Shown here: positions 30,518-34,898 of the stretch, in pieces
Layout of the letters: every line of letters starts with the position of its first letter
How positions within the stretch are numbered: position 1 is the stretch's first letter
Notes under the pieces: model-generated
Database searches by the model: none
Told to the model about the DNA's origin: nothing
The model's input: only the letters and a program-made list of their open reading frames with translations
NCBI GenBank assembly: GCA_044426265.1
Contig: JAWXUR010000003.1
Span: 714-64,713 of the forward strand
Direction of reading: 5' to 3'
DNA length: 64,000 nt
From: Clostridia bacterium
GTDB taxonomy: Bacteria; Bacillota; Clostridia; Oscillospirales; Acutalibacteraceae
Made by a program: the position numbers and the translations under genes

Positions 30518-31170
30518 GGTACAGTTTTTCTGTTATGCGTTTTTTATGGTACAGTTTTTGGCGGTAAACCGCAAAAAACGTGGTTTCGAGGGAGTGCGGT
30601 GGTTTTTGTTTCGTGAAATCACGAAACACGAATTTTTTCAGTTTCCATGGCATATGTATCGGTTAGTTTTTTTGTTTCTAGGTAGCTTTGATGTGTTGGG
30701 ACGTTTCGGCGAGCGTTTAATTTTGGCTTTGCCAAAATTATTGCGTGCCTTGCACGCAATTGCTGCGGCTTCGCCGCAGCAAAACGCTCGCCGAAACTGC
30801 ACCGCTAACTGACGATTACAATCCACAAAACAGTCGGCTGTCGCCGTCTGTTTTGCTAGTTTCATAAATCAAGCCGTAAAAATCGCTTTGCTCTTTTACT
30901 ACTAACGCAAATGCGATGTTATTTTCTCTTGGTTTGATTTGTAGGGTAATATAGTGCATTTAGTTTAGTTTTACGTTTATTTGAATCGCATTTGCTTTGC
31001 TTTAATTCTCAATTCTCAATTTTCAATTCTCCATTTTCTTGTGGTTTTCGCTCGTTGCGACGAGCGACTTAAGGCTCTGCCTTAAGAATCTGCAATTTTT
31101 CGTGAAAAATTGAGTAAAGCTTTGCTTGCTTTTTTTCTTTTTTCTTTTCTTTTTTTATTTTTTCTTTTTT
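30518..31170. repeat. Largest hairpin-array repeat locus R8 (~650 bp)
   Basis: GTAC palindrome (GGTACAG-TTTTTGGCGG-TAAA-CCGCAAAAAA), then GTTTCGTGA-AA-TCACGAAAC. A 16-bp outer stem encloses three hairpins at 30703..30797. Next come the AAAACAG..CTGTTTT hairpin, the CGCAAATGCGAT module, a 7-bp periodic tract (31004..31038), a partial hairpin chain (31046..31129) and a T/C tract (31130..31170) abutting the alaS stop. Confidence 0.88.
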
Positions 31171-33810
31171 TTAGCCTATCATTGTTTTGATAATCTCTGC
31201 CGCTTGCTCCAACGCCGCTGGAATCTTCGCAACATCCTTAGCTCCAGCCATAGCACTATCAGGTTTACCACCACCAGAACCACCAGCAAGCTGAGCAACT
31301 CCCTTAGCAATAAGTCCTGCCTTAGCACCTTTAGCAATAGCCTCTTTACCACAACAAACACCAATATTACCGCTACATTTTTCCTTTTGAACGCCGCCGA
31401 TAACACCAATATAATTTTCACCCTTATCACGAATCATGCTCATCATTTGGCGAATCTCATCAACTGTTGTATCTTCAAGCATAGTAGTAACAAGCATCAA
31501 ACCATCAATCTCAACAGCAGAATTTAACAGTGAACTAATTTTAATATTAGCAAGTTCAGTAGACTTTTTCTCGAGTTCTTTCTCTTTAAGTTTAAGAGTG
31601 TCAACAACAGCCTTAGTTTTCACAACAACGTCATTAACATTAGAAATCTTAAGCGCATCTGCAACTGAATTAATAACTCCCAATTTTTGGTTAACAAAGT
31701 TCAAGAAGTTTTTGCCTGTCACAGCCTCAATTCTTCTAACACCAGCTGCTACTGAACTCTCTGAAACGATTTTAAACAAACCAATTTCTCCAGCATTTGC
31801 AACGTGAGTACCGCCACAAAGTTCAACAGAAAAATCGCCAATTTTAACAACTCTTACAACGTCACCATATTTTTCGCCAAACAATGCCATTGCGCCCATT
31901 TCACGAGCTTTGTCGATAGGCATTTCCTCACTTTGTACGCTCAAAGCACCCAAGATGATTTCATTTACTCGAGTTTCAACCATTGCAATTTCCTCTGCTG
32001 TCATTGCAGAAAAATGCACGAAGTCAAAACGAGTGGTTTTTTCATCAACCAACTGACCAGCTTGCTCAACATGAGAGCCGAGAACTTCTCTAAGCGCTGC
32101 TTGCAAAAGGTGAGCTGCTGTGTGGTTTTTCTTAATATTTTGGTGTTTTTCGTCGTCCACTTTTGCGCTCACTTCATCGCCAACGCTCAAAATGTCACCG
32201 CTCACAAGCGAACCTGAATGCAAATAAATGCCGTCAGCTGTTTTTGTTGTACTATCAACCTTAAACACTGCTTTGTCAGTTTCGATTACACCGCTATCGC
32301 CCACTTGACCGCCACTAAGTGCATAAAATGGGGTTTTATCTAAGATGATAGTTGCTTTTTGCTCAGCTGTCACAAAGTCTTTTCTTTCATCGTCAGCCAC
32401 AACGGCTAAGATTTTTGCGTGAGCTGAAAGCTCACTGTACCCCAAGAAATCAGTTGAGTCAAGACCTTTTGTTGCTGTGCCTTTGTTTTTCCAAGCGTCA
32501 GCGCCAGCATCTTTTCGAGCGTTTCGAGTGCGCTCTCTGTTTTCTTTCACGATGCGTGCAAACTCTTCTTCGTCAACGCTCAAGCCTTTTTCTGCGAGGA
32601 TTTCTTTAGTTAAATCGATTGGGAAACCGAAAGTATCTTGAAGTTTGAATGCGTCTGCACCTGAAAGAATTTTGCCATCGAGATTTTCGATAACTTCACT
32701 CAAAAGGCGAAGCCCGTTATCAACTGTTTTTGCGAAACTTTCTTCTTCACTTTTGATGATTTTGATGATTAAATCTTTTTTCTCTAAGAGGTTAGGATAT
32801 GCGTTCTTGTTTTCCTCGATAACTGTTTCACACACTTTATAAAGGAAAGTTTCATTCACACCTAAGAGCTTACCATGACGAGCGGCACGACGAAGAAGGC
32901 GGCGAAGAACATAGCCACGACCCTCATTTGATGGAATAACACCATCGCTGATCATGAATGTCGTGCTGCGAATATGGTCGGTGATAACACGAAGTGAGAT
33001 GTCGTTTTTCTCATCGTCATGATAGTTAACTTTTGCGATATCGATAACGTGTTTCATGATTTTTTGAACTGTGTCAACTTCAAAAAGATTGTCGACACCT
33101 TGCATGATGCAAGCAAGTCTTTCAAGTCCCATACCTGTATCAATATTACAGTTTTTGAGGTGGTCATATTTACCTTTGCCATCACTTTCAAATTGAGTGA
33201 AAACTAAGTTCCAAAACTCTGTGTATCTGTCGCAGTCACAGCCTGGAGCACAGTCTGGTGAGCCGCAGCCGTACTTTTCGCCACGATCGAAGTGAAGTTC
33301 TGAACATGGTCCACAAGGGCCAGCACCGTGTTCCCAGAAGTTATCTTCTTTACCAAGACGTTTCATGCGATTTTCAGCCACACCGATGTGTTTTGTCCAC
33401 ATATCATAAGCTTCATCATCTTCAAGGTACACAGTAACCCAAATTTTATCGATTGGCATTTGCATAGTTTTTGTACAAAACTCCCATGCCCACTCGATAG
33501 CTTCTTTTTTGAAATAATCGCCAAAAGAGAAATTGCCGAGCATTTCGAAATATGTGCCGTGACGAGCGGTGATGCCCACACGTTCAATGTCAGGTGTACG
33601 GATACATTTTTGACAAGTTGTCATGCGATTTTTTGGCGGAGTAAGCTCTCCGGTGAAATATTTTTTTAAAGGCGCCATACCAGCGTTGATGAGTAGTAAG
33701 CTTTTATCTCCTTGTGGTACGAGTGAGAAGCTTTCTGCTTTGAGGTGGTCTTTGCTTTGAAAGAAGTTGAGGTATTGTTCACGGATTTCGTTTAGTGATG
33801 TCCATTGCAT
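31171..33810 (-). CDS. alaS: Alanine--tRNA ligase
   Basis: 879 aa. Class II core (RHGTYFEMLGNFSFGDYFK), editing-domain HxxxH (HTAAHLL) and a C-terminal DHHA1-like region. Confidence 0.96.
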   Translation of the reverse strand: MQWTSLNEIREQYLNFFQSKDHLKAESFSLVPQGDKSLLLINAGMAPLKKYFTGELTPPKNRMTTCQKCIRTPDIERVGITARHGTYFEMLGNFSFGDYFKKEAIEWAWEFCTKTMQMPIDKIWVTVYLEDDEAYDMWTKHIGVAENRMKRLGKEDNFWEHGAGPCGPCSELHFDRGEKYGCGSPDCAPGCDCDRYTEFWNLVFTQFESDGKGKYDHLKNCNIDTGMGLERLACIMQGVDNLFEVDTVQKIMKHVIDIAKVNYHDDEKNDISLRVITDHIRSTTFMISDGVIPSNEGRGYVLRRLLRRAARHGKLLGVNETFLYKVCETVIEENKNAYPNLLEKKDLIIKIIKSEEESFAKTVDNGLRLLSEVIENLDGKILSGADAFKLQDTFGFPIDLTKEILAEKGLSVDEEEFARIVKENRERTRNARKDAGADAWKNKGTATKGLDSTDFLGYSELSAHAKILAVVADDERKDFVTAEQKATIILDKTPFYALSGGQVGDSGVIETDKAVFKVDSTTKTADGIYLHSGSLVSGDILSVGDEVSAKVDDEKHQNIKKNHTAAHLLQAALREVLGSHVEQAGQLVDEKTTRFDFVHFSAMTAEEIAMVETRVNEIILGALSVQSEEMPIDKAREMGAMALFGEKYGDVVRVVKIGDFSVELCGGTHVANAGEIGLFKIVSESSVAAGVRRIEAVTGKNFLNFVNQKLGVINSVADALKISNVNDVVVKTKAVVDTLKLKEKELEKKSTELANIKISSLLNSAVEIDGLMLVTTMLEDTTVDEIRQMMSMIRDKGENYIGVIGGVQKEKCSGNIGVCCGKEAIAKGAKAGLIAKGVAQLAGGSGGGKPDSAMAGAKDVAKIPAALEQAAEIIKTMIG

Positions 33811-33887
33811 TATGTTTATTTCCTTTCGGTTTTTATTTTTGTTTTGTAATTAATAATGTTATAATTAATTGAGAAAAAATCATGTAA

Positions 33888-34086
33888 AATTTTACTCAAT
33901 TTTTTTAAAAAATTGCGGTTTCTTAAGGCAGAGCCTTAAGGCGCTCGCCGCAGCGAGCGAAATCTCCTATCGTCAAAAAAATCAGGAGGATAGACAAAAA
34001 TTTGTCCATTGGACAATTTTTTGTCGTAAGGAACCCTATTAAGGGGTTCCTTGATTTTGCCAAAGGCAAAACAATACAGATTTGCC
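33888..34086. repeat. Hairpin-chain element, full copy H1, inside the alaS 5' leader
   Basis: At least six consecutive stem-loops: CAATTTTT/AAAAATTG, CTTAAGGC-AGA-GCCTTAAG, CGCTCGC-CGCA-GCGAGCG, TTTGTCCA/TGGACAA, GGAACCC-TATTAA-GGGGTTCC and TTTTGCC-AAA-GGCAAAA. Collinear with 38392..38597 (inverted) and 40926..41290. Confidence 0.88.
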
Positions 34087-34181
34087 AATACAAAAAAACT
34101 ATAAATAAATATATTTTTGTTTGAATCGTTTTTTTGAAAATTGGTATTAGTGTATAGTTGATTTTCCTAAATCAAGACAAT

Positions 34182-34422
34182 AAAAAAAGCACTTTCCCAC
34201 AATCACAGGGTGAAAACTTGTGTTCCACGGTACCACCTGTGTTGTGCAAAAAGCACCACTCAATTTATCTTTAACGCAGATTTACGGCTAACTTTTCAAT
34301 TGCAACTTAGCTAGTAGCGCCTTAACACACAAACTTTAAAAATTCTTTCAGCCGTGGAATTTTCTCTCTTAAAAGCGAATGTTTTCGGTTCTAGCTTCTT
34401 TGTTTTTATTTTATTAAATTTA
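34182..34422 (-). promoter_or_regulatory. T-box leader (probable Ala specifier) controlling alaS
   Basis: On the minus strand: AGAGAG (GA motif), a candidate specifier GCU followed by a purine (ACGGCUGAAAG; plus-strand 34350..34352), stem III GTGC-TTTTT-GCAC and the T-box core GGTGGTACCGTGG (plus-strand 34225..34237). A weak terminator ends in U7 (plus-strand A run 34182..34188). Confidence 0.72.
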
Positions 34423-34429
34423 CCTTATT

Positions 34430-34459
34430 ATTATACAATTATTATCATAGTTTTGTCAA
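34430..34459 (-). promoter_or_regulatory. Consensus sigma-70 promoter for the alaS T-box leader
   Basis: On the minus strand: TTGACA (34459..34454), 18 nt, TATAAT (34435..34430). Confidence 0.68.
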
Positions 34460-34533: not shown

Positions 34534-34574
34534 AAAAAAAGCAAACTGAAAACGATTTCTCACTTTCAGTTTGC
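34534..34574 (-). terminator. Intrinsic terminator after trxA
   Basis: 11-bp stem GCAAACTGAAA / TTTCAGTTTGC. The plus-strand A7 run gives a U run on the minus strand. Confidence 0.75.
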
Positions 34575-34583
34575 TTTGATTTT

Positions 34584-34898
34584 TTACTTATTTTCGTTGA
34601 TGAACTCTATGATATCTTCTTTTGAATTAAGACCAACTAATCTTTCTTTTTCTTCACCGTCAACATAAAGAATCATGCATGGGATTGACATAACTCCATT
34701 GAGCATTGCAAGTTGTTGTTGCTCGTCGCAGTTAACTTTGCATACGTTTACTTCGCCATCGAGTTCGTCTGCAACTTCTTCGATAACTGGTGAAAGCATC
34801 ATGCAAGGTTGACACCATGGTGCCCAAAAGTCAACAAGGCTCACGCCTTCTGCTGTTATTTTTGCGAATTTTTCTTCGTCAAGTTCAATATAAGACAT
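34584..34898 (-). CDS. trxA: Thioredoxin with non-canonical WCQPC active site
   Basis: 104 aa with FWAPWCQPCMML. RBS GGAGGA. Confidence 0.9.
   Translation of the reverse strand: MSYIELDEEKFAKITAEGVSLVDFWAPWCQPCMMLSPVIEEVADELDGEVNVCKVNCDEQQQLAMLNGVMSIPCMILYVDGEEKERLVGLNSKEDIIEFINENK

Follow-up and report, generated by a model that had tools for sequence, protein, structure and literature searches.

The leader of alaS (alanine--tRNA ligase) in an uncultured Oscillospirales (Acutalibacteraceae) bacterium carries an alanine-specific T-box riboswitch that is, on the evidence of its sequence, genuine and predicted to act by tRNA-dependent antitermination. Sequence comparison with relatives identifies about 335 nt of lineage-specific mosaic repeat DNA inserted between the terminator of this T-box and the ribosome-binding site (RBS) of alaS, where the ancestral spacer measured 25-55 nt. 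The analysis concerned a 64,000-nt stretch of Clostridia bacterium (GCA_044426265.1, contig JAWXUR010000003.1, positions 714 to 64,713), called the window below, which belongs to a 2.2-Mb assembly of 162 contigs; the alaS region is read on the minus strand. We consider it probable that the promoter and the alanine T-box have been kept, with the repeat co-transcribed in the 5' untranslated region (UTR) as a mainly tolerated passenger.

To assess the T-box, we used the Rfam covariance model RF00230, which in a permissive scan matched the alaS leader over the full model (1-219) at 34409..34203 (minus strand) with 73.6 bits and an E-value of 5.9e-16. This score lies below the Rfam gathering cutoff of 93 bits, and a scan of the whole window at gathering thresholds returned tRNA only and missed the alaS T-box. 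Among the alaS leaders of congeners (L082-L097), the same model matched directly upstream of alaS in 11 of the 12 loci scanned, at 59-91 bits and in every case under the cutoff, so that the RF00230 threshold is set too high for this clade. The T-box core GGTGGTACCGTGG is located at 34237..34225, where the RNA sequence GGUGGUACCGUGG includes the UGGU read-out, and the specifier GCU (34318..34316) is followed by A (34315), the gene downstream being alaS. In an alignment of 12 leaders of the genus, GCU followed by a purine was found at the specifier position in all 12, and the AGAGA, GCGTTA and GGGTGGTACCG motifs were kept together with the terminator U tract. The genome contains a tRNA-Ala(GGC) gene (G000:C158:394-469) with G3:U70, A73 and CCA, which fits the UGGU read-out. 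As expected of a competing terminator, the predicted fold has a long helix ending at 34189, followed by U7 (34188..34182); the 3' strand of this helix and the U7 tract together span 34182..34202, and the fold of 34262..34168 has a predicted energy of -26.4 kcal/mol. We accept the alaS T-box as real despite its sub-threshold score because of its genus-wide conservation and the matching tRNA-Ala.

The T-box is preceded by a sigma-A-type promoter, TTGACA-18-TATAAT (34430..34459, minus strand), which matches the consensus at 12 of 12 positions, with TTGACA at 34459..34454, an 18-nt spacer and TATAAT at 34435..34430. Downstream of the U7 tract, a spacer of about 72 nt (34110..34181), made up in part of low-copy repeat fragments (coverage of 1-20 genome copies), leads into repeat module A (147 nt, 33963..34109) and then module B (90 nt, 33873..33962), each of which is a copy of a dispersed family. 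The retained 3' part of the leader (33811..33872) contains the RBS GAAAGGA at 33827..33821, 10 nt before the ATG of alaS (31171..33810, minus strand; 879 aa; TIGR00344, 955 bits). The distance from the U tract to this ATG (33810) is 371 nt, and the 237-nt A+B copy (34109..33873) accounts for 64% of it. An initial annotation, made from the letters of the window, had proposed a consensus promoter at 34459..34430, the order promoter, T-box, repeat and start codon, a gap of about 370 nt and a repeat filling more than half of it; all of these were confirmed, the last also for the 199-nt copy (H1) that it had delimited, which makes up 54% of the gap. Its T-box assignment was upheld by the full-length RF00230 match, which falls short of the gathering score, and was settled by conservation in the genus and the tRNA-Ala gene. 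In two congeners (L083 and L100), alaS is preceded by a plain consensus-like promoter without a T-box.

Evidence for an insertion came from the comparison with alaS leaders of relatives that the initial annotation had called for. The distance from T-box core to ATG was 72-116 nt in 15 of 16 congeners, as against 427 nt here. Relatives have 25-55 nt between the U tract and a conserved GAAAGGA RBS motif, and this motif is kept on the far side of the insertion in the window. Neither 18 further species of the genus nor the 12 other families that were searched first yielded the A+B repeat (34109..33873). The contigs of five other samples (97.3-100% identity) extend from trxA across the T-box and enter module A at the same site, and all five end at the same base, 34045, inside the repeat. 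Assemblies are expected to break at repeats, so the shared stop at 34045, together with the shared entry into module A, indicates that the insertion is common to every strain on record. A search for an insertion-free allele gave none: each of the five contigs from other samples has the insertion, the 90% cluster of AlaS consists of one member, and a 38-nt T-box segment used in the search for such an allele had no match among metagenome contigs. A target-site duplication was not visible at the alaS copy or in an alignment of 39 copies, and no empty site was recovered for comparison.

Copies of the repeat were located by BLAST against the window's own genome. Module A is present in about 50 full copies (60 loci) and module B in about 151 full copies, in support of the initial annotation, which had labelled the leader repeat a repeat copy. 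The A/B family comprises about 159 loci, with B alone at 96, A+B at 41, A alone at 13, BAB at 3 and BB at 2, in addition to single arrays of the forms ABAB, BBB, ABB and ABA, and 40% of the repeat loci (66 loci) are at contig ends. Classifiable loci lie in convergent intergenic regions in 32% of cases (background 15%) and in divergent intergenic regions in 6% (background 18%). Relative to the genes, copies point either way, and a gene boundary nearly always lies no more than about 100 nt from the 3' end of B. Nineteen sense A+B copies precede genes that include spoVT, purD, lepA, topB, argF, PBP2, an ABC-F ATPase, gyrB/parE and dapA; these are unrelated housekeeping genes, and the idea of a regulon was rejected.

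Rfam gave no credible match to the repeat at E-values up to 10, and a leu/phe-leader match in the repeat region (24.7 bits) was discarded as noise. Open reading frames (ORFs) within the insertion were limited to TTG-initiated chance ORFs, and a leader peptide was rejected. Terminal inverted repeats were absent from the 39-copy alignment: module A has TTTATTTATAG... at its 5' end and module B has ...CATGATTTTTTC at its 3' end, and neither is the inverted form of the other. An inverted GGGG..CAAGCAACTTAAG unit, part of a different repeat, borders some of the copies. The GTAG/CGTC tag is absent from modules A and B of the alaS copy. Units of GTAGGG plus a hairpin (REP/REPIN type), often in inverted doublets, flank many A+B copies and fill the leader of pheS. 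ORFs matching PF01797 (Y1_Tnp) comprise one strong match (141 bits, G000:C63:5339-5695) and four weak ones (22-30 bits; contigs C33, C1, C68 and C95), and their products may be IS200-type or RAYT-type transposases that serve the GTAGGG REP units. An origin of the modules from the IS200-like C63 locus was rejected, as this locus is single-copy and shares no sequence with module A or B. Taken together, the best reading of modules A and B appears to be a non-coding, BOX/BIME-like family of mosaic repeats that is selfish in nature.

The repeat region of the alaS leader is strongly structured, with a predicted fold of -101.7 kcal/mol (z = -7.1 against shuffled sequences). Module A contains the hairpins A-h1 (34072..34055), A-h2 (34051..34029; -12.0 kcal/mol), A-h3 (34025..33993; -13.9 kcal/mol) and A-h4 (33990..33962), all on the minus strand; A-h3, with an A tract on one side and a U tract on the other, is weakly terminator-like, and A-h4 pairs CUCCU with AGGAG. 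Module B forms three covarying hairpins, conserved in their loops CTGCGG and GGCTCTGCC and in the linker GAAnCCGC, and in addition an A/U-rich terminal hairpin ending in U6. In the alaS copy, B-h1 reaches -12.6 kcal/mol alone, four more hairpins lie at -5 to -7 kcal/mol, and the all-A/T hairpin B-h3 is unstable alone. The stable hairpins announced by the initial annotation are thus present in the predicted folds (A-h2, A-h3 and B-h1 at -12.0 to -13.9 kcal/mol). Its claim that U tracts follow none of the hairpins needs correction, since the A-h3 core (34016..34002) is followed by AUUUUU (34000..33996) and the last B hairpin ends in U6; the A-h3 core is weak (-5.1 kcal/mol), although it was called terminator-like on both strands. 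As a separate observation, the paired segment of A-h4 reads CCUCCU, which is anti-Shine-Dalgarno-like, and A-like copies from other genera (G278, G235; L125, L133-L136, L142) likewise conserve the CYCCTYCCTG segment.

Nearly all stem pairs in the 39-copy alignment are Watson-Crick, double compensatory changes are numerous, and one stem pair is seen as CG, AT, TA and GC. An alignment of 26 module B sequences across genomes of several families showed changes on both sides in 18 of 24 pairs. Departures to G:U and A:C were balanced in both alignments (9 versus 8 among the 39 copies, 10 versus 7 among the 26 sequences), which indicates palindromes that are symmetric at the DNA level and favours neither RNA strand. 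Weaker module B copies were found in 10 of 400 genomes of the order, in several families, and are multi-copy there. A 21-base core of B (TGCG-N5-CG-N6-GGCTCTGCC-N5-AANCCGC) was found in at least 120 metagenome contigs, human-gut and hare-gut contigs included, and among 82 unique metagenome copies the TTYCG, CTGCGG, GGCTCTGCC and GAAnCCGC loops and linkers are kept, whereas stem sequences are free to change. Among classifiable copies, 34 of 50 have the 3' side of B against the stop codon of a gene in the opposite orientation (loci L185-L264, on metagenome contigs, and L123-L145). From these sequences, module B is a widespread but patchy three-hairpin unit of gut Clostridia.

Seven T-box matches were found in the genome, and three of these (alaS, pheS and one on contig C24) are followed by the element in sense orientation. 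The pheS leader T-box (G000:C83:13024-14005; L146:1125-2106, minus strand) has a UUC (Phe) specifier and scores 107.7 bits. Its core lies 778 nt from the ATG, compared with 95-122 nt in relatives, which amounts to about 660 nt of extra DNA; a chain of GTAGGG+hairpin units is followed there by an A+B copy that ends 57 nt before the ATG. The C24 T-box (G000:C24:1-472; L147) is the strongest of the genome (123.6 bits) and has UGGU; its specifier is probably GUA (Val), and the contig likely holds a valS leader. A GTAGGG unit and a sense module A follow within about 80 nt, and the contig ends inside the repeat. In both complete leaders (alaS and pheS) the element ends about 60 nt before the start codon. 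With 60 A-containing loci and 955 intergenic regions in the genome, a crude binomial calculation for three of seven T-box leaders gave p of about 0.007, or about 0.001 if sense orientation is required.

For alaS, we infer co-transcription in read-through transcripts because the repeat lies in sense between the T-box terminator and an intact RBS, and near-neutrality of the repeat is likewise our inference. Uncharged tRNA-Ala would stabilise the antiterminator and let RNA polymerase pass the U7 terminator; polymerase would then transcribe the whole repeat within a 5' UTR of about 610 nt, followed by the intact RBS and alaS. T-box control would be kept, and the hairpins may modestly alter mRNA half-life or processing, effects that the initial annotation had suggested alongside one on translation. 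Elsewhere in the genome, just 34-45 nt separate a sense A+B copy from the start codon after it in at least four cases. A separate promoter would not fit there, so those copies must be read through. The predicted probability of an unpaired RBS was 0.73 in the full read-through leader with the insertion and 0.71 without it. The upstream gene trxA (34584..34898; TIGR01068 match) has an intrinsic terminator (34538..34577, minus strand; an 18-pair stem followed by a T run), which isolates the alaS unit from upstream transcription.

Several observations weigh against a largely passive repeat behind a working T-box. Differences among the strains are uniform (1.2-1.6% in every part), and purifying selection on the T-box after the insertion is not visible among them. 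Two promoter-like sequences, at 34125..34098 and 33888..33861 (each 9 of 12), could bypass the T-box. The A-tract/stem/U-tract form of A-h3 resembles a real bidirectional terminator in other copies (GCUGUCC-GAG-GGACAG-U7). Finally, three of seven T-box leaders with the element are more than simple neutrality predicts, and a site preference or a function may be the cause.

If one of the two promoter-like sequences were active, the repeat, with or without its flank, would supply an outward promoter, and most alaS mRNA would start in the insertion or beyond it and would thereby largely bypass the T-box. The upstream sequence, TTCAAA-16-TATAGT (34098..34125, minus strand), starts in the spacer; the downstream one, TTTACA-16-AATTAT (33861..33888, minus strand), has its -35 in B and its -10 in the flank. 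Both include the key A2 and T6 of the -10 hexamer, Correia elements create promoters at their ends (PMC2649163), and the plain promoters of L083 and L100 indicate that T-box control of alaS is dispensable in the genus. Promoter-like matches in the AT-rich insertion stretch were at chance level, however (4 found, 2.9 +/- 1.7 expected), and we treat both sequences as such. Junction promoters were not enriched either, with a mean score of 6.68 in copies facing gene starts and 6.52 in copies facing stop codons; a hybrid junction promoter carried by B was rejected for this reason, and only some B copies have the TTTACA -35-like sequence. In the alaS leader, promoter, specifier, T-box core and terminator remain intact, and the T-box score is like that of insertion-free relatives. 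Given these results, a bypass of the T-box is unlikely. A second promoter between 33811 and 33888, which by the initial annotation would speak against a repeat in the alaS mRNA, has a candidate in the 33888..33861 sequence, though one of a kind expected by chance. Separately, the conserved 5' end of module A (TTTATTTATAGT) contains the -10-like TATAGT, for which the alaS copy has TTCAAA 16 nt upstream; a conserved -35 partner was found in none of the other copies.

The repeat could also act as a polar attenuator, with A-h3 (A6, stem, U5) or the U6-tailed end of B stopping many read-through transcripts, lowering alaS expression and adding a second, unregulated attenuation step. Besides the terminator-like call at 34016..34002 on both strands and the stronger, U7-tailed stems of other copies, some BIMEs attenuate inside operons and SPRITE elements resemble terminators (PMC3049150). 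The core stem of the alaS copy, however, has six pairs at -5.1 kcal/mol with A-U pairs beside the U run, which is poor for intrinsic termination. Moreover, alaS is essential, the insertion is found in all sampled strains with no good promoter downstream of it, and many sense copies lie directly upstream of housekeeping genes. We regard substantial attenuation as very improbable.

A third possibility is that the element has been co-opted as a functional RNA module, either as a 5' stabiliser or RNase III site or through pairing of 5' and 3' B copies (about 90 bp) that controls the decay or processing of alaS mRNA. A second B copy of repeat family D4 (31046..31140, plus strand) lies some 30 nt beyond the stop codon of alaS and in the opposite orientation to the leader copy, so that alaS is bracketed by inverted B copies (31046-31140 on the plus strand and 33873-33962 on the minus strand) that are 85-90% identical. 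Between the stop codon and this copy no terminator was found, and a full alaS transcript would therefore carry complementary 5' and 3' segments. The predicted duplex of the complementary segments (about 90 nt each) has an energy of -103.8 kcal/mol, compared with about -58 kcal/mol for the two local folds, but the local hairpins would form during transcription, ahead of the long-range duplex. The strong covariation of B and its conserved loops and linkers across many organisms point to constraint on structure and on unpaired bases, and RNase III is reported to cleave the met T-box leader of Staphylococcus aureus (PMC7913692). The excess of sense elements in T-box leaders also speaks for a function. 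Set against these points, the balanced G:U and A:C departures favour neither RNA strand, as for palindromes at the DNA level, copies are found in either orientation with respect to genes, and the downstream genes share no common function. A T-box core was found within 1.2 kb of none of 89 metagenome B copies, so the association with T-boxes is not family-wide. Overall we give a functional module a small chance. The same small chance applies to the broader proposition that the colonisation of T-box leaders is non-accidental, whether through preferred insertion beside intrinsic terminators or through a function of module B in the transcript; such a function may consist in protecting or processing read-through mRNA, or in pairing with the inverted B copy in the alaS 3' UTR. 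A co-transcribed and mainly tolerated repeat behind a retained T-box remains the reading that we prefer.

A side observation concerns PheS, which has 78-81% identity to four congeners and only 41-47% to the best match in 15 others (L149-L167), unlike AlaS, which has 64-71% identity across the genus. A T-box core upstream of pheS was found only with the 78-81% type of PheS and in L153. The sequences suggest two pheS lineages, or gene replacement, within the genus.

These results bear on annotation and on how T-box leaders tolerate foreign DNA. The Rfam gathering score misses every alaS T-box found in the genus and the leader here is several times its normal length, so automated pipelines would separate the riboswitch from alaS. 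Essential aminoacyl-tRNA synthetase genes (alaS, pheS and probably valS) can accommodate hundreds of nucleotides of strongly folded repeat between T-box terminator and RBS. Module B is well defined, covarying, common in gut metagenomes and unmatched in Rfam, and it merits a family description of its own, whether it is selfish DNA or a functional RNA.

Among known systems, REP, BIME and REPIN elements are GTAG-tagged palindromes served by RAYT transposases (PMC3733652, PMC3116915, PMC6006769). They share with the A/B family the form of extragenic palindromic mosaics, the enrichment at gene 3' ends and the perfect Watson-Crick stems, kept on both strands (PMC3733652, PMC3116915, PMC6006769); the alaS modules differ in lacking the tag and in being far longer than REP, with 90-237 nt and several different hairpins. 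Correia elements of Neisseria (also NEMIS or CREE) are likewise abundant small structured repeats, are frequently co-transcribed in 5' UTRs, and can create promoters at their ends or be RNase III substrates (PMC2649163), but they have terminal inverted repeats, a TA target duplication and an IHF site, none of which was seen here. The absence of terminal inverted repeats from A+B also separates it from MITEs. Terminator-like repeats of the SPRITE type resemble the element in having a hairpin with a U-rich tail, a location near gene ends and an enrichment between convergent genes; here, only A-h3 has such a form, it is weak in the alaS copy, and the element lies directly upstream of many genes.

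The closest likeness is to the BOX element of pneumococcus, and it is one of organisation only, a sequence relationship not being expected. Both families are non-coding, modular and highly structured, occur in variable combinations, and reach at least 100 copies in a Firmicute host whose genome measures about 2 Mb; the two also share an enrichment downstream of genes and flanking genes without a functional theme (PMC3049150). The excess of A/B copies between convergent genes and their scarcity between divergent genes match what is reported for BOX, RUP and SPRITE (PMC3049150). Both also have a copy in a T-box-controlled 5' UTR. In the pneumococcal trp leader, a BOX element between T boxes is co-transcribed while the riboswitches still regulate, within a compound 5' UTR of nearly 1 kb defined by RNA-seq and RT-PCR (PMC3049150); co-transcription, shown for BOX, is probable for alaS. 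The arrangement differs in that BOX lies between two T boxes, whereas the alaS element follows a single T-box terminator and precedes the RBS, and in that three of seven T-box leaders are affected here, in an uncultured Oscillospirales host. The kind of event is already known; what is new is the repeat family and the host order, and the single pneumococcal BOX/trp precedent is extended to another order and another repeat family.

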